Below, in pieces: positions 4,129 to 61,704 of a stretch of 64,000 nt of DNA. The DNA comes from a plasmid. Positions within the stretch are counted from its first letter, which is position 1; each line of letters begins with the position of its first letter. Location: the NCBI RefSeq assembly GCF_055900595.2, contig NZ_JBVWEU010000003.1. One strand, written 5' to 3'. The notes beneath the pieces were generated by a model. It had not been told where the DNA came from. It saw only the letters and a list, made by a program, of their open reading frames with translations, and searched no databases. Made by a program: the position numbers and the translations under genes.

Positions 4129-4721
4129 TGAAATCAGACGAAAAATACCAGGTTCCCGCGTGGATGCGACCTCTGTTGCCGTTGCTCTGCAACACCGGGG
4201 AGAACGATCCGGAAGAACTGCTGAATGATACAGAAACCACTGCCAGTGCGAATGTTGTCCGTTATGTACTGATAGTTGCAGTGCGGTCGCAGGTTGATCT
4301 GCTGCAGCTTCTGTACAGGAAAGGGCTGTTGCGCACAGAGATACCAGGTGGCTTTTCACCGGAAGAAGCGCAGGAACTCCTGGATAATCTGGTGCGCAGC
4401 CATATCAGCAGGGCGCTGTCGGGTGAGCGAATGGCAGCCCGTGACAGGAATGCCGATCTGGCCTGGATTCGACAGCAACTGGTCGATGCCGCCTGGTTTG
4501 TCCGTGCCACACTGGAAGCGCATGGGATGAGCGTCGGAAATGAGAGTCCCCCTGCTCAGCCGGAGACAATGCCGGACATACAGACACGGGAACTGGTGAT
4601 GTTGATCAAGCGACTGGCATCATCGCTGAAAGCGGTGAAACCGGACAGTTGTGTGGTGCGTGAAGCGCAGGACTGGCTGCGCGACAGAAAACTTGTGAGC
4701 ATCACGGATGTTCTTCGGTGA
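4125..4721 (+). CDS. Hypothetical leading-region protein
   Basis: ATG overlapping the psiA stop (TAATATGATG); about 199 aa, acidic, no recognisable motif. Confidence 0.5.
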   Translation: MMKSDEKYQVPAWMRPLLPLLCNTGENDPEELLNDTETTASANVVRYVLIVAVRSQVDLLQLLYRKGLLRTEIPGGFSPEEAQELLDNLVRSHISRALSGERMAARDRNADLAWIRQQLVDAAWFVRATLEAHGMSVGNESPPAQPETMPDIQTRELVMLIKRLASSLKAVKPDSCVVREAQDWLRDRKLVSITDVLR

Positions 4722-5686: not shown

Positions 5687-6024
5687 TTTACTCCCCCGCT
5701 CCGGCGGGGGTATGGCCTGCCGGGCCGCCGGAAAACCCTGGCAGGCTTACGCCTGCCTGAAATGCAGGAGGGCCGCGCCTGCGGCGCTGCCCTTCCTGCC
5801 CGTCATGGTGTGAGGCATTTTTCTGTTATGTCGTTTCTGTTGTTCTGATTTCCGGAGGCGGGGACACCCTTCGGCTCCCGGCTGCCTGGCGGCATCCGGT
5901 CGTCAGGCCCGACTCCGACAGGCAGCTGCTGGCGCACCCGCCAGTCTCCGCCGAACCCGCTGGCGCGGTTTCGGGCTGCCGCTACGGTCCGATGTCTGAA
6001 AAACCAGGCCTGCAGCGACCGTTC

Positions 6025-11121: not shown

Positions 11122-13842
11122 ATGAATGCCATTATTCCGCACAAAAGACGTGACGGCAGGTCTTCCTTTGAAGACCTGATTGCGTACACGTCTGTGCGGG
11201 ATGATGTGCAGGAAAATGAGCTCACAGAAGACAGCGAAATCAAGAGTGATGTCCCTCACCGCAACCGTTTCAGACGGCTTGTTGATTATGCAACACGCCT
11301 GCGTAACGAAAAATTTGTCTCCCTGATTGATGTGATGAAAGACGGCAGTCAGTGGGTAAATTTCTATGGCGTAACCTGTTTCCATAACTGCAATTCACTG
11401 GAAACAGCTGCTGAAGAGATGCAGTACAAGGCGGACAAAGCTGTTTTTTCCCGTAATGATACAGACCCCGTTTTCCACTACATTCTTTCCTGGCCTGCGC
11501 ATGAAAGCCCGCGTCCTGAGCAGCTTTTTGACTGTGTGCGTCACACACTGAAATCTCTTGAACTCTCAAAACATCAGTACGTGGCTGCCGTTCATACGGA
11601 CACGGATAATCTGCATGTGCATGTTGCCGTGAATCGTGTACATCCTGAAACTGGTTATATTAACTGGCTTTCCTGGAGCCAGGAAAAACTCAGTCGTGCA
11701 TGCCGTGAACTTGAACTTAAGCACGGATTTGCGCCGGATAATGGCTGCTTTGTGCATGCACCCGGCAACCGTATTGTGCGCAAAACAGCGCTGGTACGTG
11801 AGCGCCGTAATGCCTGGCGACGCGGGAAAAAGCAGACGTTCAGGGAATATATTGCGCAGATGTCGATTGCCGGGCTGCGTGAAGAGCCCGCACAGGACTG
11901 GTTATCTTTGCATAAACGGCTGGCCAGTGATGGTCTGTATATCACGATGCAGGAAGGGGAACTGGTGGTGAAGGATGGCTGGGACAGAGCGCGGGAAGGT
12001 GTTGCACTCAGTTCGTTCGGACCGTCATGGACAGCTGAAAAACTGGGGCGGAAACTGGGGGAATATCAGCCTGTACCGACAGATATTTTCAGTCAGGTGG
12101 GGACACCCGGTCGTTATGATCCGGAAGCCATAAACGTGGATATCCGGCCGGAAAAAGTGGCAGAAACGGAGAGTCTGAAACAGTACGCCTGTCGTCACTT
12201 TGCTGAACGCTTACCGGAAATGGCGCGAAATGGTGAACTGAAAAGTTGCCTGGCTGTACACCGTACTCTGGCAGAGGCGGGATTATGGATGGGGATTCAG
12301 CACGGGCATCTGGTACTGCATGATGGATTTGATAAACAACAGACACCAGTACGTGCAGACAGTGTGTGGCCGTTAATGACGCTGGATTATATGCAGGATC
12401 TGGATGGTGGATGGCACTCTGTACCGAAGGATATTTTTACTCAGGTTATACCCGAAGAACGATTCCGGGGACACAGTATTGGCACTCAGGCTGTCAGCGA
12501 TTACGAATGGTATCGCATGAGGATGGGCACTGGTCCACAGGGTGCCATAAAGCGTGAACTGTTTTCCGATAAGGAAAGTCTGTGGGGATACGCTCTTATT
12601 CAGTGCAGGAGCCAGATTGAAGAGATGATAGCTGGCGGGGATTTCAGCTGGCAGGCATGTCATGAGATGTTTGCGCGTAAAGGGCTTATGCTGCAGAAAC
12701 AGCATCATGGTCTCGTGATTGTGGATGCGTTTAATCATGAACTGACACCGGTGAAGGCCAGCAGTATCCACCCGGATTTGACGTTATCCCGGGCCGAGCC
12801 TCAGGCCGGGCCATTTGAAATTGCGGCTGCAGATATTTTCGAACGGGTGAAGCCTGAATGTCGCTACAATCCGGAACTTGCTGCCAGTGATGAAGTGGAG
12901 CCCGGCTTCCGGCGCGATCCTGAGCTGCGTCGTGAGCGCCGTGAAGCCCGTGCAGCTGCGCGGGAAGATTTGCGTGCGCGTTATCTTGCATGGAAGGAAC
13001 ACTGGCGTAAACCCGATTTACGTTACGGCGAACGGTTGCGGGAAATTCATGCTGCCTGCCGTCGTCGCAAGGCTCATATCCGCGTGCAGTTCCGGGATCC
13101 ACAATTGCGTAAACTGCATTACCATATTGCAGAAGTGCAACGTATGCAGGCGCTGATCAGACTGAAGGAAAATGTCAGGGAAGAGCGACTGGCGCTGATG
13201 GCGGAGGGTAAGTGGTATCCGTTGTCCTACCGGCAGTGGGTGGAACAACAGGCGGCGCAAGGCGACAGAGCTGCAGTGTCACAGCTCCGAGGCTGGGATT
13301 ATCGCGATCGTCGCTCGCGTAATAAGGATAAAAGACGCACAACTAATGCTGATCGTTGTGTCGTTCTCTGCGAACCCGGAGGAACGCCACTTTTTAATAA
13401 TGTTGCAAAACTTGAAGCTCGTCTTCAGAAAAATGGAAGTGTTCATTTCAGGGATACGCGGACAGGAAAAAATGTCTGTACGGATTACGGAGATCGGGTT
13501 GTGTTCTACCATCACACGGACCGAAATGAACTGGCAGAGAAGCTTGATTTAATTGCGCCAGTTCTGTTCAGCCGCAACGGAAAGCTTGGTTTTGAGCCGG
13601 AAGGTTCATACCAGCAGTTTAATGATGTGTTTGCAGAAATGGTGGCCTGGCACAATGCAGCGGGAATAACCGGAAACGGACACTTCACCATTACTCGTCC
13701 GGACGTGGATTTGCACCGTCAACGCAGTGAGCAGTATTACCGGGAATATATCAGACAGCAGACCCGTTTATCGGAGAGCCATGATGATAATTATACGTTA
13801 CGGCAGGAGAAAACATGGGAGCCACCATCACCTGGAATGTAA
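11122..13842 (+). CDS. nikB: MOBP-family relaxase NikB
   Basis: 906 aa; His-rich relaxase motif HTDTDNLHVHVAVNRVHPETG; size and position match R64 NikB. Confidence 0.9.
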   Translation: MNAIIPHKRRDGRSSFEDLIAYTSVRDDVQENELTEDSEIKSDVPHRNRFRRLVDYATRLRNEKFVSLIDVMKDGSQWVNFYGVTCFHNCNSLETAAEEMQYKADKAVFSRNDTDPVFHYILSWPAHESPRPEQLFDCVRHTLKSLELSKHQYVAAVHTDTDNLHVHVAVNRVHPETGYINWLSWSQEKLSRACRELELKHGFAPDNGCFVHAPGNRIVRKTALVRERRNAWRRGKKQTFREYIAQMSIAGLREEPAQDWLSLHKRLASDGLYITMQEGELVVKDGWDRAREGVALSSFGPSWTAEKLGRKLGEYQPVPTDIFSQVGTPGRYDPEAINVDIRPEKVAETESLKQYACRHFAERLPEMARNGELKSCLAVHRTLAEAGLWMGIQHGHLVLHDGFDKQQTPVRADSVWPLMTLDYMQDLDGGWHSVPKDIFTQVIPEERFRGHSIGTQAVSDYEWYRMRMGTGPQGAIKRELFSDKESLWGYALIQCRSQIEEMIAGGDFSWQACHEMFARKGLMLQKQHHGLVIVDAFNHELTPVKASSIHPDLTLSRAEPQAGPFEIAAADIFERVKPECRYNPELAASDEVEPGFRRDPELRRERREARAAAREDLRARYLAWKEHWRKPDLRYGERLREIHAACRRRKAHIRVQFRDPQLRKLHYHIAEVQRMQALIRLKENVREERLALMAEGKWYPLSYRQWVEQQAAQGDRAAVSQLRGWDYRDRRSRNKDKRRTTNADRCVVLCEPGGTPLFNNVAKLEARLQKNGSVHFRDTRTGKNVCTDYGDRVVFYHHTDRNELAEKLDLIAPVLFSRNGKLGFEPEGSYQQFNDVFAEMVAWHNAAGITGNGHFTITRPDVDLHRQRSEQYYREYIRQQTRLSESHDDNYTLRQEKTWEPPSPGM

Positions 13843-14061
13843 GCCCGGATAAGTGATGGTGCAAAGATTCAGCCCAAAAACGGCAGGAACCTTCGTCAAT
13901 AAGGGCGGGAGTAGTCACTGAATTGAGTTTATACCCGGTTAACTCTGAATTAAGGGCCGTGTCTGCGGCCCTTATCCAGTGCGCCGTAAACCCCGGACTT
14001 AGTGAACAGGGTTTTACAGTCTGATTGACAGATATGGTCACCAGAAAATATTTGTATTCCT

Positions 14062-16362
14062 TCAGTATTTTTCGTCAGTTGTTGGTTGTGCTCCACATGA
14101 TTTCTGGGGATGATCATTATTTATTGTCTGCGATTTATTATTTTCAGCGACCGGTAACAGTATCTCCAGGGGGAGCAGGGTATTCAGAATCGCCTTCACT
14201 GAAGGTATATCTTCAGGACCGGAGTGTTCCTCTTCCGGACGATTCAGTGTGATATAACATACCCGGCGTTCTTCCCTGGTTGTGTTATTGATAGTGTGCA
14301 CAGCCTTTTTCCACAGTTCGTTTGCCCGGGATTCGATATCTGTATCATATTGCGGAAGCAGATCCAGTGATGTCTGCGCTGTTGCCAACCGGCGCTGGAA
14401 TGTATCAATGATACGGTAAGGCTCTGTACGGTTTTTACGACGTTTACGGGATGGTTTTGCTGTCAGTACACCAATAATGCTGCTGACATGCTCCGGTGTG
14501 GGAAAACGGCGCTGCACTGTCCTGGGGACAAGACGGCGGAGACGTTCCAGTCGGGGGGCTTCAACAGAGATATAACGGTTGATGACCACTGGATCACTGT
14601 CGCAACTTTTTTCGCTGTCCGGAATATACACAGAGGCTGACGGCACCACATCCCCCTGGAAAACGGTAAAGAATTCACCGGCATTCAGTTTGATTAAATC
14701 CTGCACGTTGATTTTGCTTTCCATCTGGATTGTGATCTGGTTACCGTCCACCCAGGACTCTCCCATCACACCATCGTGGCGCTGCAGGCTGCCCATTCTG
14801 GCGCGGGCCTCTTCACCGGCGGCATTTTTCACCGTCCTTGCTGTTTTGTCGTCACTGACAATGCGTCCGGCGAATTTGGTGCCGGCGTTCTGCATCAGCG
14901 TGGCGGTGTTGGTGGCAGAAGTCTGCCCTTCGATTCGCTCCTGATCCTGCGCCGTCATTATCAGGGAGAACTCCAGTGAACGTACCTGGGTGGCCTCCAC
15001 TGCAATGCGGTCCGTGTAGTAGGCACCGACTTCGTCAAGGATACAGATATAGGGGAAGCGGCCTTTGTATTTTTTGACTTCCAGGGTCTGTGCATCTGTG
15101 CCTTCCAGGCGGTAGCCCAGGTCACGGGCGAGGATCATGCTCTGCTGGGTGATGAACATACGACCGAGTGCCGACGTGGTATGGGCTGATGTGTCCAGTG
15201 CGGGGATCATCACAATCAGAATTCGGTCGCTGTGGATACTGTCGCGAATATCGATGTCGCCGGCATCTGCCGCAAAGACGTCCCCGAAGGTTTCGGCAAA
15301 GGTTGTGAACGTTTCCGAGAACTGACCGGAGAGATAAGCATGCTGTTTACGGGGCTCCTCAGTCCAGGCTGACGGCGTTCTCACCAGTGACATATCGAAT
15401 CCCGGGACATCCTGCAGGTAGTTTCGCAGTGGTGCGATAGCTTCTTCCGGCCACTGGTCATCAAGGCCACGGCAATAGAGTTTTGCCATCCCTTCCAGCG
15501 TCATATGTTCCCGTAACATATGCAGGGACATGGTTTTACCTTCCCGGACGCACCAGAATTTTGTGCCAAAGACCAGGGCCTTGTTCATGGCTATCGCCCG
15601 TGACTGCCATTCACCGCCCTGAACGTTCTGGGGCAGCATGGACTGCATGGTTTCGGCGGTGAAGGCTTCGGTGCTGAATGCGAACGGGTTCCAGGTGTTT
15701 GACTGTGGGCGGGATTTATCGCCACTCTGAATGACTTCACTGCGGGATTTTCCGCCGTTCATGAAGTTGATGACCTCGATATCATCCTCCCGGCCAAAAC
15801 GTCGGGAGAGATACCAGATTGTCCTCGTGGTATCGTTCTGTGCCTTTCCGTCAACAAAGGTAAAGCCTCTTCCCCAGCAGAGCGGGTTGAGCAGCCAGGC
15901 AAAGGTGGTTTCTGTTTTACCGCCACCGGTGGTGGAAAAAAATATGATATGCCGGGTGAGGTCATCCATGCTCAGCCAGAGCTCACGACCGATATCGTTG
16001 ATACGGCGGTAACCGACATAAAAAATCCCCCGTGCGGGGGATGTTTCATCTGCTTCATACTGAAACAGGGTAGGCCAGAAGCTGAAGAGGCTTCGCCTGA
16101 CCTTTCTGTCCTGGGAGGGGTCATCAAGGCTGAGCGTCATGGGCATACGCAGGGGGCATCGCCAGCGTTGCAGCGTGAATATCACGGAGGTGACCAGGGT
16201 GAACAGCAGACAGACAGGAAGGGCCAGTGGCCATATCAGGGCCGTAATGATACTGCCAGCCAGACACAGACCAATGATGTTCAGGTTGTGCAGTGCATTC
16301 CACAGCGGGTTTCCCCAGGCCGTGCGGTGTATGAGGTCAGGATTAACGTGATGCTGGCTCAT
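14062..16362 (-). CDS. trbC: Type IV coupling protein TrbC (DotL/IcmO-like ATPase)
   Basis: 766 aa; N-terminal TM helices; Walker A FFSTTGGGKTE; position next to nikB. Confidence 0.85.
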   Translation of the reverse strand: MSQHHVNPDLIHRTAWGNPLWNALHNLNIIGLCLAGSIITALIWPLALPVCLLFTLVTSVIFTLQRWRCPLRMPMTLSLDDPSQDRKVRRSLFSFWPTLFQYEADETSPARGIFYVGYRRINDIGRELWLSMDDLTRHIIFFSTTGGGKTETTFAWLLNPLCWGRGFTFVDGKAQNDTTRTIWYLSRRFGREDDIEVINFMNGGKSRSEVIQSGDKSRPQSNTWNPFAFSTEAFTAETMQSMLPQNVQGGEWQSRAIAMNKALVFGTKFWCVREGKTMSLHMLREHMTLEGMAKLYCRGLDDQWPEEAIAPLRNYLQDVPGFDMSLVRTPSAWTEEPRKQHAYLSGQFSETFTTFAETFGDVFAADAGDIDIRDSIHSDRILIVMIPALDTSAHTTSALGRMFITQQSMILARDLGYRLEGTDAQTLEVKKYKGRFPYICILDEVGAYYTDRIAVEATQVRSLEFSLIMTAQDQERIEGQTSATNTATLMQNAGTKFAGRIVSDDKTARTVKNAAGEEARARMGSLQRHDGVMGESWVDGNQITIQMESKINVQDLIKLNAGEFFTVFQGDVVPSASVYIPDSEKSCDSDPVVINRYISVEAPRLERLRRLVPRTVQRRFPTPEHVSSIIGVLTAKPSRKRRKNRTEPYRIIDTFQRRLATAQTSLDLLPQYDTDIESRANELWKKAVHTINNTTREERRVCYITLNRPEEEHSGPEDIPSVKAILNTLLPLEILLPVAENNKSQTINNDHPQKSCGAQPTTDEKY

Positions 16363-17467
16363 TGTGATTATCCTCGGTATCTGTGGCTTTCAGGAACAGG
16401 CTGACGGTAGTGGCGTCTTTCAGGATGCCGGACGGCAGGTGCCAGCCGGTATCGGATAACACCCATGGGGTACCGCCAAAACCGAACTGGCGGAAAGCCT
16501 GGTTATTGACATCGATGGCAGCACGAGCAGCGGTCAGACACTTTTCATCCGGTGCAGCCGGTGCATCGACGGTGGGTGCCATACCACCGTCTGCGGAATA
16601 CAGCTGATGCCATCCGGTCGCCCGTTTTTGTGCGTCCGGTTCACACAGCAGTGGCGCAGTCCGGTTTGTGCTGGCCTCTCCGCCGATTACGGAGACCGGA
16701 TAAATCACCACGCTGAATTCCCGGGCCAGTTGCTTAAGCGCGGGCTCCAGAAGACGGCAGTTGATGCATGCGGGGTCAAGGAAGGCGTAGAGTGTGCGTT
16801 CATGACCAGTGGAGAGATTAATGGTGAACATACCCCGGTCCGCGTTGCGTTTAAGTACTGTGGACAGATTACGGCGGGCCTCAGCGGCCTGAACGTGTTG
16901 TTCTTCCGTCACTGCCGTCGGGGCGGGGGCAGAAGAAGGTTCCTGCTGTGTGGGAGCCGGGCGGGCCGGGATGCTGTTAACATGATGTTCCGTATGTGGG
17001 CGTGGTGTCTCTGTGTCGGTTACTGGTTCAGCTCTCCATTCCTGAGATGTAGGGTAAGCCAGCGTGGAAGGGGGCTCTGCCTTCATCCAGTGGTAACCTG
17101 CAACTGTCGCCGGCAGAGCAATTCCGGCGATAAAGCCACACATCAGTGTCCGCCAGAAGCCATATTTCCGGGAGGGATGTTTTCCTTTTCCGGCATATTC
17201 GGCATCCAGGCAGGCATCAATCGCTGAGAGCATTCTGCCGATGTGATGTCCGGGACGTTCTGCATCAACGGTATCAACAAGCACCGTTTCGGTTATTTCG
17301 CGAAAAGGGGAACTGAAGGACAGGTGCATCAGCCTGTTATTACGGTTAATCAGTGCGCCCAGTTCTGTTACCGGCAGGATGGCAATCACCTCCCGATTAC
17401 CGTCAGGGTACAGGGCGGTCAGGGACAGGTGTTTATTATTCAGTGTTGCAGTGTAGTGGATGGTCAT
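16343..17467 (-). CDS. trbB: TrbB, thioredoxin-fold disulfide isomerase-like transfer protein
   Basis: 374 aa; CxxC motif (DPACINC) in the C-terminal domain; position between trbC and trbA. Confidence 0.8.
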   Translation of the reverse strand: MTIHYTATLNNKHLSLTALYPDGNREVIAILPVTELGALINRNNRLMHLSFSSPFREITETVLVDTVDAERPGHHIGRMLSAIDACLDAEYAGKGKHPSRKYGFWRTLMCGFIAGIALPATVAGYHWMKAEPPSTLAYPTSQEWRAEPVTDTETPRPHTEHHVNSIPARPAPTQQEPSSAPAPTAVTEEQHVQAAEARRNLSTVLKRNADRGMFTINLSTGHERTLYAFLDPACINCRLLEPALKQLAREFSVVIYPVSVIGGEASTNRTAPLLCEPDAQKRATGWHQLYSADGGMAPTVDAPAAPDEKCLTAARAAIDVNNQAFRQFGFGGTPWVLSDTGWHLPSGILKDATTVSLFLKATDTEDNHNEPASR

Positions 17468-18825
17468 TGTTCTTTTTCCTTGTCGGCGGGATCCTGTTTT
17501 TCGGTGGTTTCGGTGGTTTCGGTGGTTTCGGTGGTTTCGGTGGTTTCGGTGGTTTCGGTGGTTTCGGTGGTTTCGGTGGTTTCGGTGGTTTCGGTGGTTT
17601 CGGTGGTTTCACCAGTGTCAGTGTCTTCGTCGTTATCATGGCGGCGGGGTATCACGTCATCCGTGAGTGACCAGCGGGTCCTGATCTGACGTTTACGATC
17701 GCGATCTGGCTGAGGTTCGTCCCATATCAGGCCCAGCCCCAGCATGTCCCGTCGAAGCCCTTCAATGGCCTCTTCCACACAGGGTTCCGGGCAGGGGAGG
17801 CCGAGACGGCTGGCTTCATTTTCTGCCCGGGCAACGGCCACCACGCCGGCCCCTTCGATGAAGCCTTTTGTGGTGTTTGCCCGGTGAAGGGCATAGAAGA
17901 GCGTCCGGTCAACGCCCTTGAGCCACAGCCAGTTCGGAGGCGTCAGGCGCAAATCATGTGCGTAAAGCCAGACCAGACCGCTGCGAACGTAACGGTGCTG
18001 CCTGAGCCACTTTTGTGCGCCTTCTGTTTTGATGACCCGGATAAAGGCGTTTCTGGCCAGTGAATACACCGGCGTGCTGAAACGCCCCTGGTCCCGTTTA
18101 CTTTTGAGCCTGCAGGAGAGATTGAGGTTGTTCATCAGGGCTACCGCTGCTTTCCGGTCACCGAGGAAGAACTGCAGGCCAAAGATGGCAAAGAGCGCTT
18201 TTTCATGTGGGGCCATGTCTTTCCAGCTGGTCAGTGGTTGCCCCAGTTGCGCCATGAAGCACTGGCGTGTGGACGCAACATCGAGCTGCATGTTGCGGAT
18301 AAGGTTGTTCTGCTCCACAAAGGCTTCGGGGGTTAGTGCGACACGGCGCTCGGGACGTTTTTGTCCGTGGAAGAGTCTGTTGTTGTCTCCATCAGCCAGA
18401 ACGGGGGCGATCGCCGGTGACAGAGCTGAAAAAATATGGGGCAGTGTGTGGATATTCAGTGGCCTGCGGGTAAAACGGGGCTGGGCCGGATGGTGAAACC
18501 ACATCCACAGAAAGCCGAATGTCATGGGAAGCAGAATCAACCAGAGGATCCCCACTGTCCGGGACATAACATCCAGCCACTGGCTGAAAGTGATGGTTGC
18601 CGCGTTGTTAGCAGTGATGGCCAGCAGGTTGTAACGGGGGGCGGCAAAGTTGTGAAAGGGCCCCCAGTCAATCATGCCCCACAGTGTGTGCAGGATCAGG
18701 CAGGAGGCGAAGACGATTTCAGGTAAAAAGCGCCAGATGATAATCGCAAAGAGCAGGCATATGGCACCGACGATATACCATATAGCCATTGGATCTTCGG
18801 CGGCAGACGTCTGTTGGTAAGACAC
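17464..18825 (-). CDS. trbA: TrbA (DotM/IcmP-like inner-membrane transfer protein) with a C-terminal (TTE)n tract
   Basis: 453 aa; multiple TM helices at the N-terminus; C-terminal acidic tail containing TETTETTE... repeats. Confidence 0.8.
   Translation of the reverse strand: MSYQQTSAAEDPMAIWYIVGAICLLFAIIIWRFLPEIVFASCLILHTLWGMIDWGPFHNFAAPRYNLLAITANNAATITFSQWLDVMSRTVGILWLILLPMTFGFLWMWFHHPAQPRFTRRPLNIHTLPHIFSALSPAIAPVLADGDNNRLFHGQKRPERRVALTPEAFVEQNNLIRNMQLDVASTRQCFMAQLGQPLTSWKDMAPHEKALFAIFGLQFFLGDRKAAVALMNNLNLSCRLKSKRDQGRFSTPVYSLARNAFIRVIKTEGAQKWLRQHRYVRSGLVWLYAHDLRLTPPNWLWLKGVDRTLFYALHRANTTKGFIEGAGVVAVARAENEASRLGLPCPEPCVEEAIEGLRRDMLGLGLIWDEPQPDRDRKRQIRTRWSLTDDVIPRRHDNDEDTDTGETTETTETTETTETTETTETTETTETTETTETTETTEKQDPADKEKEQ
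17497..17613 (-). repeat. Perfect 9-bp tandem repeat (TTCGGTGGT on +, about 13 copies) encoding the (TTE)n tract of TrbA
   Basis: Directly visible: ggtggtttcggtggtttcggtggtttc... repeated without interruption. Confidence 0.9.
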
Positions 18826-18992: not shown

Positions 18993-19482
18993 TGCTATTC
19001 CGGGGCGGAGTTGGTGACTCTGACCGAAAGGGAAATCACTCTACATCTAACACCATCATAGTAGGCTGCGCTTCTCTTTTTTGCAATCAGAAAAATGACT
19101 ATAATCGCTCCGTTAGCTCTGTCTGGTGATGCTTCTGCCCTTTAATAAAATATGCTCAGGTTAAAAATCGAAAACCTTCCTGCACTTCCTGTGCCTGTTC
19201 CCGTGAGTCAAACATGAGCCGGCTTTTACCCGGAACTCCCCAGGAAATATATTCTACATCCACCCACCATTTTCCGTATTCTTCATATGGTCCGGATATC
19301 ACTTTAGTGACAAATGCATCAACCAGGTTCATTTTTACACCTTTCTGTTATTCTGCTTATTACGACCAGCAGACAGCAAATATTAAAAATAACGCGGCGG
19401 TAAAAATGGCAATTTTTTCCCATACTGTATTTTTTCCATTTATTTGCTTTGAAATGTTTTTTTGCTTCATATCAGTAAATGA

Positions 19483-19950
19483 TTATTTTTTATTCTGTTT
19501 CCTCCAGGCCCATGGTGGCACCGGATTTTCATCTGCCCATAATCCCCGTTTAAGGGCACGGGCATCGCGCTGGAGAGCCGGGAGAGTATAGTCCTTGTTG
19601 TAGTCCGGGTATACCCAGGCCGCTCCCTTCCTGATTTGCTCACGATTCGCTTCAGTGCCGTCAGCGGTATAGACTCTGCCGAGAATACGGTTATATCTGT
19701 CGGTCTGTAAGTATTGTACGGTTACAGGCTTTCCGGCCACCAGGTCCTTCAGCTGAGTGGCTGACCAGCGTCCAAAGGGCTGTTTCTTTTCCGGTGCATC
19801 AATATTTGCCAGGCGGACCCTGACAGTTTTTTTATCCTGTAATATTTCCAGTGTATCACCATCAAGAACGCGGATAACGTTTCCCTGAATCTGTGCAGCG
19901 CAGAGGGAACCTGAAAAAATAATAGCGAGAGAGAACATATATTTTATCAT
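19483..19950 (-). CDS. nuc: Secreted thermonuclease (staphylococcal-nuclease-like)
   Basis: About 155 aa with a signal peptide (MIKYMFSLAIIFSGSLCAAQ); SNase fold motifs (VIRVLDGDT..., RLANIDAPE, RYNRILG). Confidence 0.85.
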   Translation of the reverse strand: MIKYMFSLAIIFSGSLCAAQIQGNVIRVLDGDTLEILQDKKTVRVRLANIDAPEKKQPFGRWSATQLKDLVAGKPVTVQYLQTDRYNRILGRVYTADGTEANREQIRKGAAWVYPDYNKDYTLPALQRDARALKRGLWADENPVPPWAWRKQNKK

Positions 19951-20071
19951 TTTATTACATCCTTTTTTATTCATGAAAAACAGGCGGCGTTTATATTACG
20001 GAATAATATCGTTAAGTTGAGTTTATGTTTCCGGTAATGTAATGCTTCACGCAGAGGGTAATGACTCCAAC

Positions 20072-20575
20072 TTACTGATAGTGTTTTATGTTCAGATAAT
20101 GCCCGATGACCTTGTCATGCAGCTCCACCGATTTTGAGAACGACAGTGACTTCCGTCCCAGCCTTGCCAGATGTTGTCTCAGATTCAGGTTATGTCGCTC
20201 AATGCGCTGAGTGTAACGCTTGCTGATAACGTGCAGCTTTCCCTTCAGGCGTGATTCATACAGCGGCCAGCCATCCGTCATCTATACCACGACCTCAAAG
20301 GCCGACAGCAGGCTCAGAAGACGCTCCAGTGTGGCCAGAGTGCGTTCACCGAAGACGTGCGCCACAACCGTCCTCCGTATCCTGTCATACGCGTAAAACA
20401 GCCAGCGCTGACGTGATTTAGCACCGACGTAGCCCCACTGTTCGTCCATTTCAGCGCAGACAATCACATCACTGCCCGGTTGTATGCGCGAGGTTACCGA
20501 CTGCGGCCTGAGTTTTTTAAGTGACGTAAAACCGTGTTGAGGCCAACGTCCATAATGCGTGCACTGGCGCGACAT
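20072..20575 (-). pseudogene. insB: IS1 insB interrupted by an in-frame stop
   Basis: InsB frame reads ...LSAFEVVV[14 protein letters not shown]... where canonical InsB, as recalled, has ...VVIWMTDGW...; an internal W to stop change splits the ORF into 20282-20575 and 20072-20281. Confidence 0.75.
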
Positions 20576-20769
20576 CCGACGCCATTCATGGCCATATCAA
20601 TGATTTTCTGGTGCTTACCGGGCTGAGAGGCGGTGTAAGTGAACTGTAGTTGCCATGTTTTACGGCAATGAGAGCAGAGATAGCGCTGATGTCCGGCAGT
20701 GCTTTTGCCGTTACGCACCACGCCTTCAGTAGCGGAGCAGGAAGGACATCTGATGGAAATGGAAGCCAC
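20494..20769 (-). CDS. insA: IS1 InsA
   Basis: 91 aa; [30 protein letters not shown]... zinc-finger-type InsA. Confidence 0.95.
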
Positions 20770-20830
20770 GCAAGCACCTTAAAATCACCATCATACACTA
20801 AATCAGTAAGTTGGCAGCATTACCTTTCAT

Positions 20831-22996
20831 TTATTGTTTTATTCCGTCTTTATCATCTCCATTAATATTTTTCAGTTTTTCTTCACGAACGCCAGGTGTT
20901 CTGCGCATATTGGTATTACCTCCGGCAATAATATCTTTGACTGAAGAAACCATATTCCCCAGCATATTAACGCCGTCACGTCCGCCCAGAAAATTAATTA
21001 CATGGTCAGGCAGATAAGCCTGAAGTGCAAAAACGGCGGCAACCAGCGTGGTACAGACGCGGGCATAAATCATCAAAAATCCTGCCATGCTGAACACGCC
21101 CGTCACAGAATTTATCTGGACATTCATCAGCGCGGCGGCAAACAGCGCATTCAGGATTGTGCCGCCGGCCACGATGGCGACCGATGCAAAAAAGAACCCG
21201 AATACCATCAGCAGCGGTCTGATCATGCTGTCTATCAGGTAGATGTAACCGTAAGCGGCCCGGCTTCCCCGGTCCTGGCTTGTTCCCAGATGGGTGGCCG
21301 CCCAGAGGGGGCCAGCAGCACATCCAATCAGTACGCTAACTATCCAGTTACCAATGCCGGTCATCCAGAAGATAAACGGAATAAACGGCAGGTAAATGGA
21401 TAACGAAAAGCCGGCACAGAACAGCAAAAACAGCAGGAAGTAGAGCGGTGGAGCGGCTGCTTCCAGAAAAGCCTTTGCGGCGTCAGATAATCCGCTGACG
21501 GCATTGACCAGTCGACCAAAAACGGAGTTGCTGCCGGCCGTGGAAAGTACCCTGACGGTGGTATAACCCGCCCAGATGGTTTCGGTTGTAACCATGGTGT
21601 AATCGCCAATGTTTTTCATTTTTATCAACGGATTTAGTTGATTAGTTGTGGTACCTGTACCGCTCAGATAAGTGGCTGTCCAGTTAGTCATTCTTGTTAG
21701 GTTAAACCCAATCAATTTTAAGATTGCTGATTGAGGGTCTTGAGTTTTAGATGCGTGGTATTCACTGGCAGAGGTGGCGGTTCCCAGTGCAGGAGTATAC
21801 GCTGAGTTCTGCAACTGTGCCTGGTAAGCTCCTCTGACTTCCTTCAGGAACTCCGTATCCCCGGCTTCGCCCAGTGACGAGACGCCACTCACAGTAGGAG
21901 CGCGGTTGGCCAGGTCTTCCAGTCGCTGGTTGGCGGTGGCAAAGGTCTGGTACCAGGCACCCAGGGCAACCCAGCCGTAGGTGGTCAGGTAGGATTTCAA
22001 CTGCTCCCTGCGCTCAGTTTCTGCGTTATCTGCCGGCAACGCCTTCTGCACCGTTTCTTCATACCGGTTGGCTGCCTTCTGAATACGGCTTTCAATATCC
22101 GGCAGGTTGCCGTTACCCGTGTCGCGTCGGGTCCGGTACGCTGACACAAATTCCTGTGCTGCGCTGTCCAGGTCACGGAGCATGGTATCCATGGCGGAGC
22201 GTTGTGCCGTCAGGACTCCCTGATACTCCGTTTCAATGAAGGGATTGAAAAAATGGGCCAGCGCGGACTGGTTGTTGCTGCCATTCCCTTTCACGGTGAG
22301 ACTCACACTCCCGCAGGTGGCACTGCCATTTGAAACGGTGACGGTATACCTGCCGTTCTCTGTCCGTGAGGATTCGCTCATGGGCGGCGTTGATGAACGT
22401 GCGGTACGGTTAAAGTCATCGAGGCCCGTATTCATGGCGTGTTTGCACAGCGCCATCTCCAGAATTCCCCGTGCTGCCGTGCGGGTGGAGACATGTACTG
22501 GCTGTACGGTCATTGAATAGCCTTCAGCGATGTTTTCTGCAGCAGTCTGAACCATGATATTGGCGGAACCGATGCCCATGATGGATGCGCCCCAGAGCAT
22601 GACCAGTTGTGCCAGGCTCCAGCCGGAAGCGGTGGGCACAATCATCATAAAACCGCTCACAATACTGAGCATTCCGACGACGTCCCGTCCGTTGTTAAAG
22701 ACATTGCCCTGGTGGCCGGTGCGGACAGCATGGCGGATTCCAATAAACAGGAACCAGACTATCCCCATAATGGCGATAATTGCGTTAAACACCATGAACA
22801 GGTTGCCGATAATGGTGTTGCTGCTGGCTGTCAGGGGATTTGTGACCACATCACCAAAAATGGTGACCAGTGCCTGGCGCGACAGGTCATCCGGATTGGT
22901 GGCGGCGCTCACAATGTCCTGATAGGTGACGAATGCCTGTGCAGGTACGGCAGCCAGCGCCAGACCCGCACTCAGTGCTCTGGGTATGATTTTCAC
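20831..22996 (-). CDS. traY: TraY (DotA-like integral membrane protein of the I-type T4SS)
   Basis: 721 aa; signal peptide and many TM helices; size and position as R64 TraY. Stop codon lies 6 bp from the IS1 end. Confidence 0.8.
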   Translation of the reverse strand: MKIIPRALSAGLALAAVPAQAFVTYQDIVSAATNPDDLSRQALVTIFGDVVTNPLTASSNTIIGNLFMVFNAIIAIMGIVWFLFIGIRHAVRTGHQGNVFNNGRDVVGMLSIVSGFMMIVPTASGWSLAQLVMLWGASIMGIGSANIMVQTAAENIAEGYSMTVQPVHVSTRTAARGILEMALCKHAMNTGLDDFNRTARSSTPPMSESSRTENGRYTVTVSNGSATCGSVSLTVKGNGSNNQSALAHFFNPFIETEYQGVLTAQRSAMDTMLRDLDSAAQEFVSAYRTRRDTGNGNLPDIESRIQKAANRYEETVQKALPADNAETERREQLKSYLTTYGWVALGAWYQTFATANQRLEDLANRAPTVSGVSSLGEAGDTEFLKEVRGAYQAQLQNSAYTPALGTATSASEYHASKTQDPQSAILKLIGFNLTRMTNWTATYLSGTGTTTNQLNPLIKMKNIGDYTMVTTETIWAGYTTVRVLSTAGSNSVFGRLVNAVSGLSDAAKAFLEAAAPPLYFLLFLLFCAGFSLSIYLPFIPFIFWMTGIGNWIVSVLIGCAAGPLWAATHLGTSQDRGSRAAYGYIYLIDSMIRPLLMVFGFFFASVAIVAGGTILNALFAAALMNVQINSVTGVFSMAGFLMIYARVCTTLVAAVFALQAYLPDHVINFLGGRDGVNMLGNMVSSVKDIIAGGNTNMRRTPGVREEKLKNINGDDKDGIKQ

Positions 22997-44820: not shown

Positions 44821-45070
44821 TTCACCTCCGTGCGGTTCATATGTTAAGTCTAAAGAGCGTGTTTACTGAACGGAAACGAGTTATTTCGATCGTTATGATC
44901 GAGTGTGTTTCAAGAGTGCTTTTAACTCTGTTTTAAGCGTGAATGAAAAGGATTCGGACAGGACGTGATTTAGCATGCCGCTGGTCTGGCATTATGCTGC
45001 AGAGCAGACGGAGTCAGGAGATTGAAGGGCGGTACAGTCTGCGAAGACTGGACACGGGGTGTGTCGGGAA

Positions 45071-45616
45071 TTAACGCACGTGAGGCGTAATGAGAACGAC
45101 GCGTTTTTCGCTAGCTCCACCTCCGGCGAATCCATTCATGACAAGGGACTGTTCCGGTCTGAGAGAAATGCTCTGCTCAACAGTCTGGTTTCGTTTCTGG
45201 TCTGTGGTCGAGAGTCGCAGAGTGATATTGCCCCCCTTAATATCCGGCGATATCTGCATTCTGACATCGGGGGATACATCAGCAGTAAAGGCATCCGGAC
45301 CTACGGATGTTACCTGTGATTCAACACAGGACGTATTCTGCATCATCCCGTGGAGCGTTTCAGGTGTCAGCGTCAGGCTGTCATTAAAAAAAGCACTGTG
45401 TGAAATGACCCCCTGAGCATCGGCAAACAGGTCCGGATGGCGCTCATTAAGAAGGCTTCCGTATTTTTCCGCCAGGCAGATTGGGTTGCTGGCCGTTGTG
45501 TCTGTTCGCACGGTATCGACCGTGAATGTCACCTGCGGGTGATGTTCCCTGTGGCCTGTGCAGCCGGACAGCAGTGCGGCGGCTATCGTCATCCAGAGTA
45601 GTGGTTGTTTTTTCAT
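45071..45616 (-). CDS. Hypothetical lipoprotein
   Basis: 181 aa; signal peptide with lipobox (MKKQPLLWMTIAAALLSGC). Confidence 0.6.
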   Translation of the reverse strand: MKKQPLLWMTIAAALLSGCTGHREHHPQVTFTVDTVRTDTTASNPICLAEKYGSLLNERHPDLFADAQGVISHSAFFNDSLTLTPETLHGMMQNTSCVESQVTSVGPDAFTADVSPDVRMQISPDIKGGNITLRLSTTDQKRNQTVEQSISLRPEQSLVMNGFAGGGASEKRVVLITPHVR

Positions 45617-45734
45617 GCTGTTAATTTCCTCTCAGGGTAAAAAGAAAGACTCGCACCGTCATGTCAATGGTAAGCGTACAGCCTGAACCGTCTGGTCAGA
45701 ATCTGACGAATTAGACATAGGGGCAAATCCATGT

Positions 45735-60302: not shown

Positions 60303-60423
60303 AGAATATAATCCGGTATATTACGGGTTACGGTATAAGACAGGTGGCGGGTAACTGGCCTTCAGATGAATATCATTTCATCGGGTTATTGATGATGAAC
60401 CTTAAAAATCACAGAGGTGATGC

Positions 60424-60819
60424 ATGATAAAGAAGATGTGGCGTTATTTACGGCAAATTGATAAGTATGAATTGCTGCAGCAGGTGATTTCAGTACATGA
60501 AGTGGAACTGCTCAGGAAAATGATGACAGATTCATTATTAGGGTGCTCAGTAGGATATGTGTTTTCGAAAATACTGAAGATATCCTTTCTGCGTTTTATT
60601 CAGTCTGAGGGGGGATGGGATATTATTACTTACTTTTTGTGGATGCTGGGAATACTTATTGTCATGGTCGCGCTGTTTATCTGGATGTGCGCCGCTGTAT
60701 GCTATGAGCTTCGGATGTATAAAATAAAAACAGGAAGGGAGAACGATATATTATTCTGGGTGTGGATTCTTCTTTTTGATGTCGCGGTTGTATTTTCGCT
60801 GGGTAATGTTATCTGGTGA
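60424..60819 (+). CDS. Small membrane protein on the + strand, convergent with the next ORF
   Basis: 131 aa; two C-terminal TM helices; long ORF in roughly 40 percent GC DNA, so unlikely to be chance; stop codon abuts the stop of the 60820-61251 ORF (TGATTA). Confidence 0.5.
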   Translation: MIKKMWRYLRQIDKYELLQQVISVHEVELLRKMMTDSLLGCSVGYVFSKILKISFLRFIQSEGGWDIITYFLWMLGILIVMVALFIWMCAAVCYELRMYKIKTGRENDILFWVWILLFDVAVVFSLGNVIW

Positions 60820-61251
60820 TTATGGGTTCAGTGACATATGGAAAAAGATAAGTGCGAACATTGATACTGAAGAATAATATATCCAGGAATAGAAAAACAT
60901 GAATTTCGGAGATGGTTTCTTCTGTCTCCTGTTTTTCAGGGGAGTCTGTGGGTCAAATGTTATCAGCGTCATTAAAGGATACCCTTTCATAAGAATAAAA
61001 ATATAGACGCATAAATGAGCGTAAAGAGGTAACCTGTCCTGCCAGAACAGAATCATCATGATGACGGCAAGATGAAATGTCGTTACATTGATATAATAAA
61101 ACCAGCTGTATTTACGCAGATACTGTTGGATATTCACGCTGTCAGCATGCGGTTCTGGTGAACAATTTATGCAAAAACAGAAGAAAGAAATGATGATGAA
61201 CACGGTCAGAGTGACCGGTAATACAGTCACAAGCAGAAAGAGTATGGACAT
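60820..61251 (-). CDS. Small polytopic membrane protein
   Basis: 143 aa, four predicted TM helices, AT-rich; occupies the pilK/pilJ position upstream of pilL, but homology is not recognisable. Confidence 0.5.
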   Translation of the reverse strand: MSILFLLVTVLPVTLTVFIIISFFCFCINCSPEPHADSVNIQQYLRKYSWFYYINVTTFHLAVIMMILFWQDRLPLYAHLCVYIFILMKGYPLMTLITFDPQTPLKNRRQKKPSPKFMFFYSWIYYSSVSMFALIFFHMSLNP

Positions 61252-61323
61252 AAAAATATCTCCGTCAGGATAGTGTGATTATTCCTTTATGGTTCCATAA
61301 CCCGGCGTAGCTCCGTCGACTGG

Positions 61324-61704
61324 TTATAATTTTATCCGGGACCTGGCTTTAAGGGGTAATGCCACCTCTTTCCATTCACTACAGCTTCCGGGAATACGTT
61401 CTGTGCGTCGTATTATTCGTGTGTTCTGGCATACAATAATCAGGGCATTGTCTGCCGTCTGAAAAGGCATAATCGCAATGTTAATATCTTCTGTTGCCGG
61501 GATACAGATGACTTTCTTTTCACATGTATTGGTGTATATGACAACTCTGAATTTTTCTGCGGACATTTTCAATCCTCTTTTAAACCAGAATATCCCGTGA
61601 GGGCATTCTTTGTGAAAAAGTTCTGTGGACTTCTCTATGACGGCAGGTAATGCATCCAGCAGGGCAAGACGGAAGCGGAGGCTGGTCTGCTCATCCGAAA
61701 GCAC
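61324..61704 (-). CDS. Hypothetical protein (pilI/traD position)
   Basis: 126 aa; no motif recognised. Confidence 0.45.
   Translation of the reverse strand: MLSDEQTSLRFRLALLDALPAVIEKSTELFHKECPHGIFWFKRGLKMSAEKFRVVIYTNTCEKKVICIPATEDINIAIMPFQTADNALIIVCQNTRIIRRTERIPGSCSEWKEVALPLKARSRIKL

Follow-up and report, generated by a model that had tools for sequence, protein, structure and literature searches.

In R64, pDV10, pCFSAN083829_3 and other IncK2 relatives excA directly follows traY; here an IS1 element lies 6 bp beyond the traY stop codon. The DNA analyzed here (the window, the whole stretch of 64 kb) has an IncK2/Z (I-complex) conjugative plasmid backbone. The first-pass annotation had placed excA natively after traY and had seen no ExcA-like ORF in the window. 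Both points were borne out, by the gene order of the relatives and by tblastn: neither the IncK2 nor the R64 ExcA matched the window at E<=1e-3, and the best E-value obtained with three IncK2 ExcA proteins was 0.4. These ExcA searches cover the 64-kb window; the plasmid extends beyond it by approximately 17 kb or more, and a copy of excA might lie there. The coordinates of the features are given in Table 1.

Table 1. Features of the nuc-IS1-traY region (positions in the window)
Feature	Position	Strand	Remarks
nuc (thermonuclease family)	19483..19950	-	in its native place by a 58-aa ORF and trbA
Left flanking 9-mer CACGCAGAG	20048..20056		final bases of the nuc-side backbone
IS1, isoform IS1F	20057..20824	-	exactly 768 bp; both ends as in K-12 IS1F; IRR end (20057) toward nuc, IRL (insA-proximal) end (20824) toward traY
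insB' frame	20072..20575	-	broken by amber TAG at 20282-20284 (Trp98 to stop)
insA	20494..20769	-	91 codons, GTG start, intact
A6C (AAAAAAC) -1 frameshift motif	20512..20518	-	intact; read from sequence
Deletion junction	20824..20825		homology to intact relatives ends at 20056 and restarts at 20825
Right flanking 9-mer TTTCATTTA	20825..20833		traY stop (20831-20833) plus 6 intergenic bp
traY (DotA/TraY family)	20831..22996	-	721 aa, intact; TAA at 20831-20833

The element belongs to the IS1 family and is of the IS1F isoform. It has imperfect terminal inverted repeats of about 23 bp (GGTAATG...), and insB' lies in the -1 frame after insA. In the isoform comparison it was identical to K-12 IS1F at 763 of 768 positions (5 mismatches), compared to 70 mismatches to IS1A, 72 to IS1B and 73 to IS1D. 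K-12 IS1F, the type 4 IS1 beside fecI/yjhU with insB7 as a pseudogene, has in common with the window copy the length of 768 bp, the IRL and IRR, an intact insA and the A6C motif, whose role in IS1 frameshifting has been described (PMC12428005). The five substitutions in the window copy include H for K-12 P34 and D for K-12 G74 in InsA, while the GTG start of insA is common to all IS1 isoforms compared. K-12 IS1F adjoins the fec locus, whereas the window copy resides on a plasmid, away from fec. The same element, with 768 of 768 identical positions, was found as IS1a of pEGY2 and as the IS1 of pEk140_mcr-10.

The nonsense codon in insB reported by the first-pass annotation was found. The same TAG occupies InsB codon 98 in K-12 IS1F and in pEGY2 IS1a, while TGG (Trp98) stands there in pEGY2 IS1b, IS1A, IS1B and IS1D. 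The exact 61-mer bearing the TAG had matches in 2,850 or more E. coli records and in 39 or more plasmid records. The stop had been thought to immobilize this particular copy, but it is a widespread hallmark of IS1F and should count as normal for that isoform rather than as a new lesion; the element is non-autonomous and mobilizable in trans. IS1F is immobile alone and is mobilized in trans by InsAB' (PMC12428005, PMC12903888), and when InsAB' is supplied it is the most readily trans-mobilized non-consensus IS1 (PMC12903888). The IS1 transposase has a cis preference, and laboratory trans-mobilization of IS1F required over-expressed InsAB' (PMC12903888). When target-site duplications were sought at other amber-bearing IS1F copies, they were absent in all five distinct contexts sampled.

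The boundaries of IS1 and the unlike 9-mers at its two sides, both described in the first-pass annotation, were verified on the sequence. No direct repeat of 8-10 bp flanked the element, CACGCAGAG and TTTCATTTA agreeing at 0/9 positions in register. Mismatched 9-mers alone are the chance expectation for any two such sequences, and the meaningful test is the comparison with intact relatives. In pDV10 and pCFSAN083829_3 nuc and traY are separated by approximately 4,038 bp containing an HTH gene, small ORFs, the pnd (hok/gef) locus and excA. Compared to pCFSAN083829_3 the window lacks 4,038 bp (L005 8958-12995), and compared to pDV10 it lacks 4,037 bp (L002 1964-6000); the flanks are colinear with the relatives on both sides of the missing interval. 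None of the ten proteins encoded in this interval matched the window by tblastn at E<=1e-3. These relatives support the earlier suggestion that the missing duplication reflects an IS1-associated deletion and not a simple insertion. The left 9-mer is upstream of nuc, at 106 bp from its ATG, and in the intact relatives it is also upstream of the divergent HTH gene, at a distance of 58 bp. The nuc gene was 100% identical to that of pEGY2 and pCFSAN083829_3. It had been regarded as occupying the space of excA; its place beside trbA is the native one, and the deletion brought it near traY.

On the traY side, the gene was 99.9% identical in DNA sequence to traY of pDV10 over its full length. On the minus strand its TAA is followed by ATGAAA (20830-20825) and then by the IRL of IS1, as the first-pass annotation had stated. 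Its reading of ATGAAA as the first codons of a truncated downstream gene did not hold, and ATGAAA was rejected as the start of excA. In pDV10, excA starts 87 bp past the traY stop, after a hairpin with a 15-bp stem and a GGAGG; ATGAAA is intergenic in this spacer and opens merely a 7-codon mini-ORF, the ATG of which is not conserved in pCFSAN083829_3.

The closest counterpart of the region was found in pEGY2 (NZ_CP023144.1), an IncK2/Z plasmid carried by E. coli CFSAN061770, which came from raw-milk cheese in Egypt. The junction between nuc and the IRR is identical in both plasmids, with 0 mismatches over 19000-20056, over 20825-21825 and across IS1. Elsewhere the backbones are 1-4% apart in patches, and pEGY2 carries an ISSso4 insertion. 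Beginning exactly at the IRL end of IS1, pEGY2 has 8,752 extra bp (NZ_CP023144.1 61493-70244), which hold genes for an inositol monophosphatase, an RNase Z and an ABC transporter, a second, intact IS1 (IS1b) and 119 bp with the 38-bp start of excA. This 13-codon remnant is the sole trace of excA in positions 1-50000 and 54068-103234 of the record, and pEGY2 is likewise without a functional excA. Homologous recombination between IS1a and IS1b of pEGY2 was rejected as the origin of the window junction for two reasons: the window lacks the 119-bp excA' remnant, and none of the 32 variants of IS1b, the one at the IRL end included, occurs in the window IS1. Two other plasmids with IS1 near nuc, pSTEC1018_1 and pJKHS006_1, were rejected as intermediates since their insertion sites are different and excA is kept. 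Among PLSDB and complete RefSeq E. coli records, none covered the junction of the IRL with TTTCATTTA, and none covered at least 80% of 19400-21400, the whole nuc-IS1-traY layout.

IS1-promoted adjacent deletions are established from studies of gal and of R plasmids. As a general phenomenon they have been reviewed, and together with recombination between IS copies they are the usual causes of missing target-site duplications (PMC11708052). In the window, the loss is contiguous and starts at the terminal base of IS1 (within 1 bp); one junction is shared with pEGY2 and the other is unique to the window. The 9-mer TTTCATTTA is presumed to be both the endpoint of the deletion and the target of transposition, and the 31 bp around this site in pDV10 are 81% A+T. 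A classical IS1 adjacent deletion probably produced the junction; its dependence on InsAB' is inferred from geometry only. Initially, a non-autonomous IS1F copy would have settled in the intergenic region between nuc and the HTH gene. Intramolecular transposition of this copy into a nearby A+T-rich target would then have deleted the DNA from the IRL terminus to the 9 bp containing the traY stop codon, leaving one IS1 copy and no target-site duplication. The HTH gene, five small ORFs, the pnd (hok/gef) killer locus, the traY-excA hairpin and excA would have been removed. The ancestor may have been pEGY2-like, with the order nuc, IS1a-cargo-IS1b-excA'-traY and a loss of 8,752 bp, or may have carried IS1a beside the intact 4-kb interval, with a loss of 4,038 bp.

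Like the classical adjacent deletions, the event would have kept the IS, started at one IS terminus, left no target-site duplication and ended in A+T-rich DNA. Unlike in the classical cases, the IS encodes no transposase, and the deletion is here deduced from sequence. Because the window insB carries the amber codon, the IS1F copy cannot make InsAB' itself, and transposase must have come in trans; a pEGY2-like ancestor could, for example, have supplied it from its intact IS1b, as could chromosomal IS1 copies. The IS1 copy is the only one within the 64-kb window and no trans source is visible there, an observation that, like the cis preference of the transposase, speaks against a deletion driven in trans. 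The rearrangement is of an ordinary, well-understood IS-mediated kind and is mechanistically nothing new.

In an unlikely alternative, two directly oriented IS1F copies arose by independent insertions, the first upstream of nuc and the second 6 bp beyond the traY stop; RecA-dependent recombination between them then deleted the interval and left half of each target-site duplication. The end product, a single IS1 with unlike flanks, would be the same, and such recombination is a frequent cause of missing duplications (PMC11708052). IncK2/Z plasmids visibly have an IS hotspot between nuc and excA, and the two IS1 copies coexisting between nuc and traY in pEGY2 are directly oriented. However, no PLSDB or complete RefSeq E. 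coli record has IS1 at the traY-proximal site, and the only known second IS1, IS1b of pEGY2, lies 119 bp off with 32 differences, none of them present in the window IS1. One extra insertion by a non-autonomous element would also be needed.

It is very improbable that the junction is an artefact of assembly, in which a pEGY2-like plasmid had its IS1-bounded segment collapsed. Repeats of the IS1 type commonly break or collapse short-read assemblies, and in pEGY2 two copies bracket 8 kb, but a collapse would retain the unique 119 bp (excA' and hairpin) by traY that the window lacks; the junction is located exactly at the IS1 terminus, and no mixed IS1a/IS1b bases occur in the window IS1. Simple insertion of IS1 into a native nuc-traY junction, with a decayed target-site duplication and excA natively absent or located elsewhere, finds its sole support in the part of the plasmid outside the window and is hardly credible: it is refuted by the colinear 4-kb interval with excA in both pCFSAN083829_3 (100% identical nuc flanks) and pDV10 (99.9% identical traY). 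In aggregate counts, the excA-traY junction occurs in 484 plasmid records and a close traY in 459-465; these counts and the lack of agreement between the flanks also speak against simple insertion.

Assuming the adjacent deletion, the gene content of the window predicts that the transfer apparatus was kept intact and that ExcA-dependent entry exclusion and pnd post-segregational killing were lost. As in the TraY/ExcA entry-exclusion module of other I-complex plasmids (R64, R621a, IncK/B/O/Z), the tra operon ends with an intact traY; in contrast to that module, the excA partner is wholly deleted and only the donor-side component TraY is left. The relevance is chiefly to annotation and plasmid epidemiology, and the IncK2/Z plasmid should be described as Δ(HTH-pnd-excA)::IS1F. 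It also offers a case from nature in which an IS1F that encodes no transposase lies at the junction of a rearrangement, and this fits recent laboratory evidence of IS1F driven in trans. As only rare members of the set of about 460 related plasmids have lost excA, entry-exclusion studies could use the variant as a natural control.

On one strand, traY, IS1, nuc and trbABC are now arranged head to tail, and it is conceivable, though with little probability, that this co-directional string alters transfer-gene expression. Equally speculatively, and with little probability, the loss of excA may be no accident and may mark a small natural exclusion-negative IncK2 lineage, comprising the window plasmid and pEGY2, that persists via superinfection by, and recombination with, related I-complex plasmids. 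If so, superinfection and recombination would help to explain the patchwork identity around the junction.

By megablast against plasmids, the backbone of the window was assigned to IncK2/Z (I-complex, MOBP/MPF_I), and its traY shared 99.9% identity with the traY of pDV10 and of further IncK2 plasmids from poultry or food. The window was colinear with the IncK2/Z plasmid pEGY2 (NZ_CP023144.1), beginning in the leading region with ssb/psiB and continuing across nikAB, trbCBA, nuc and traY to traE, then the shufflon and pil. Mapping onto pEGY2 placed the window end just upstream of repA, with approximately 17 kb of pEGY2-equivalent backbone (rep, stability genes) falling outside the window.

Sequence reading together with the ORF listing confirmed the first-pass annotation of the IS1 element, its flanks, the traY stop and the insB stop. 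IS1 was oriented with IRR toward nuc and IRL, the insA-proximal end, toward traY, and its two flanking 9-mers had nothing in common. On the minus strand the traY stop TAA (20831-20833) was followed by ATGAAA and then by the IS1 end. A promoter-like match at 20817-20790, within the IRL, lies where we would assume IS1's own promoter to be.

Features of the IS1 region, from the sequence 19300-21300 and the ORF listing
Feature	Position	Strand	Remarks
IS1	20057-20824		768 bp
insA	20494-20769	minus	intact
insB' frame	20072-20575	minus	TAG inside
insB' TAG	20282-20284		TGG (Trp98) in intact IS1 copies
A6C frameshift motif	20512-20518		intact
Left flanking 9-mer, CACGCAGAG	20048-20056		
Right flanking 9-mer, TTTCATTTA	20825-20833		
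traY	20831-22996	minus	721 aa

In pDV10 and pCFSAN083829_3, two intact IncK2 relatives, the native order was trbA, (dqlB), a 58-aa ORF, nuc, a divergent HTH gene, about five small ORFs, pnd (Hok/Gef plus antitoxin), a small HEAT-repeat ORF, excA and traY. In R64, too, excA follows traY directly, across a spacer of 70 bp, but this interval contains no thermonuclease there. The nuc side of pCFSAN083829_3 was 100% identical to the window as far as 20056 and homology returned at 20825, leaving 4,038 bp missing from the window (4,037 bp compared with pDV10). When the ten interval proteins and the IncK2 and R64 ExcA were used in tblastn, no match was obtained in the window at E<=1e-3, and the top ExcA match at any threshold had E = 0.4. 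Since the interval is present in the relatives, the homology gap falls at IS1 and ExcA has no match in the window, the proposal that an IS1-associated deletion took out excA was supported. The same deletion also took pnd, the small ORFs and the HTH gene. It had also been proposed that nuc occupies the place of excA; the position of nuc is native, and the deletion merely brought it beside traY. The excA-traY junction (at least 80% coverage) was present in 484 plasmid records, against 459-465 with a close traY, and excA loss looks rare.

The nuc-excA interval of IncK2/Z plasmids was an insertion hotspot (loci L006, L011 and L012 of further relatives and L003 of pEGY2). Examples were IS903B with a TnsA remnant and IS1A, IS1 with a phosphoethanolamine transferase and a GNAT/DUF1778 pair, IS1 beyond nuc on its far side, and the IS1-cargo-IS1 structure of pEGY2.

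The ATGAAA had been read as the start of a truncated gene. On the minus strand of pDV10, the traY stop is followed by ATGAAAATATCGAAAAACCAATAA, a 7-codon mini-ORF, then by a perfect 15-bp-stem hairpin (L002, the pDV10 locus, 5920-6006; MFE -24.6 kcal/mol, z = -5.6) that is gone from the window, and then by GGAGG and the excA ATG. As excA thus starts 87 bp past the traY stop, and the ATG of ATGAAA is not conserved in pCFSAN083829_3, this reading was abandoned; the six bases are a leftover of the intergenic spacer. The hairpin, placed ahead of the excA Shine-Dalgarno, might act in termination or attenuation, or might control the translation of excA.

Among records in PLSDB and the complete RefSeq E. 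coli genomes, only pEGY2 shared the nuc/IS1 junction of the window. In pEGY2, nuc is joined directly to one IS1 copy (IS1a), followed by a cargo segment of approximately 7.9 kb with genes for inositol monophosphatase, RNase Z and a sugar ABC transporter, then by a second copy (IS1b), 119 bp and traY. IS1a was identical to the window IS1 at 768/768 positions, including the TAG, while IS1b, in the same orientation, had 32 mismatches and an intact insB. The 119 bp comprised the first 38 bp of excA, the hairpin and the spacer. No mismatches between the window and pEGY2 were found over 19000-20056, IS1 and 20825-21825, and outside these stretches the two differed by 1-12% in patches. The window thus corresponds to pEGY2 minus 8,752 bp. 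The start of this segment coincides, to within 1 bp, with the terminal base of the IRL of IS1a, and its end lies at TTTCATTTA. The IS1-bounded cargo occupies L003 6494-14358 (pEGY2 61493-69357), and none of its four IS1 junctions had matching TSDs.

The IS was kept, the deletion started at its terminus, no TSD was present and the target was A+T-rich (81%). Such geometry is the classical signature of IS1 adjacent deletion, i.e. intramolecular transposition. Missing TSDs usually result from adjacent deletions or from recombination between IS copies (PMC11708052). A crossover between IS1a and IS1b could not yield the window arrangement, since it would retain the 119 bp and leave an IS1 with the IRL end of IS1b (GGTGCC, not GCTGCC). 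Change in the opposite direction, from the window to pEGY2, could not regain the excA remnant. An adjacent deletion would have run from the IS1a IRL terminus to TTTCATTTA, removing either cargo of the pEGY2 type or, beside a solitary IS1a, the 4 kb of original backbone; one and the same step would suffice for either ancestor. Transposase would have been supplied in trans, candidate sources being chromosomal IS1 copies and, if the ancestor resembled pEGY2, its intact IS1b. No second IS1 was found in the window.

The window IS1 had 5 mismatches to K-12 IS1F and 70-73 to IS1A, B and D, which on sequence identity makes it an IS1F isoform. K-12 IS1F carries the identical TAG, and the K-12 annotation lists its insB7 as a pseudogene. 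Of 20,395 complete-genome E. coli records, at least 2,850 had the exact TAG-containing 61-mer as their best match (TGG version, 4,233). The 61-mer was also present in at least 39 plasmid records, and a mcr-10 plasmid of Enterobacter roggenkampii carried an IS1 identical at 768/768 positions. With the same TAG in K-12 and the 61-mer so widespread, the insB stop is inherited with the isoform, being neither a lesion of this copy nor a sequencing error. In K-12, IS1F did not move on its own, and with InsAB' in trans it was the most readily mobilised non-consensus copy (44% of insertions) (PMC12428005, PMC12903888). The presence of the stop is confirmed, but the suggestion that it immobilised this IS1 needs correcting: the TAG is a trait of the trans-mobilisable IS1F, which "non-autonomous" describes more accurately than "immobilised".

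The 9-bp target duplication was missing at every amber-bearing IS1F copy sampled (L008, the K-12 copy, and loci L014/L018, L015/L019, L016 and L017). These represented five distinct contexts: the fec-linked K-12 copy, IncF, IncY, small fec-carrying records and Enterobacter pEk140_mcr-10. From this small sample, rearrangement junctions seem to be where the non-autonomous IS1F is chiefly encountered.

The minus strand now reads, head to tail, traY, IS1 (insA/insB'), nuc, the 58-aa ORF and trbABC, no longer interrupted by the traY-excA hairpin, and read-through along this string is conceivable. As traY is intact, the transfer machinery should be functional. In I-complex plasmids, ExcA is the protein that brings about exclusion on the recipient side, and its variants pair with TraY variants (PMC8004404); in its absence, loss of entry exclusion is predicted. 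The exact IS1/traY junction was not found in the collections searched. Though unmatched, it is not a new kind of thing: it is an ordinary strain-level structural variant, produced by a well-known mechanism from well-known elements.

Compared with pEGY2, pDV10 and pCFSAN083829_3, the backbone was a mosaic of 100%-identical and 2-12%-divergent patches. ISSso4 (IS21-family), located between psiA and ardA in pEGY2, was missing from the window at approximately 4368-4373, and nothing in the pEGY2 regions compared corresponded to segments of 0.7-1 kb at 13308-14225, 45027-45730 and 60401-61356. Within the trbA ORF (17464-18825, minus strand), 9-bp units of GGTTTCGGT are repeated in tandem at 17500-17610. 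Close to the C-terminus of TrbA, this repeat gives rise to a (TET)n run, and its copy number in the window differed from those in pEGY2 and pCFSAN083829_3 (alignment gap 17512-17595).
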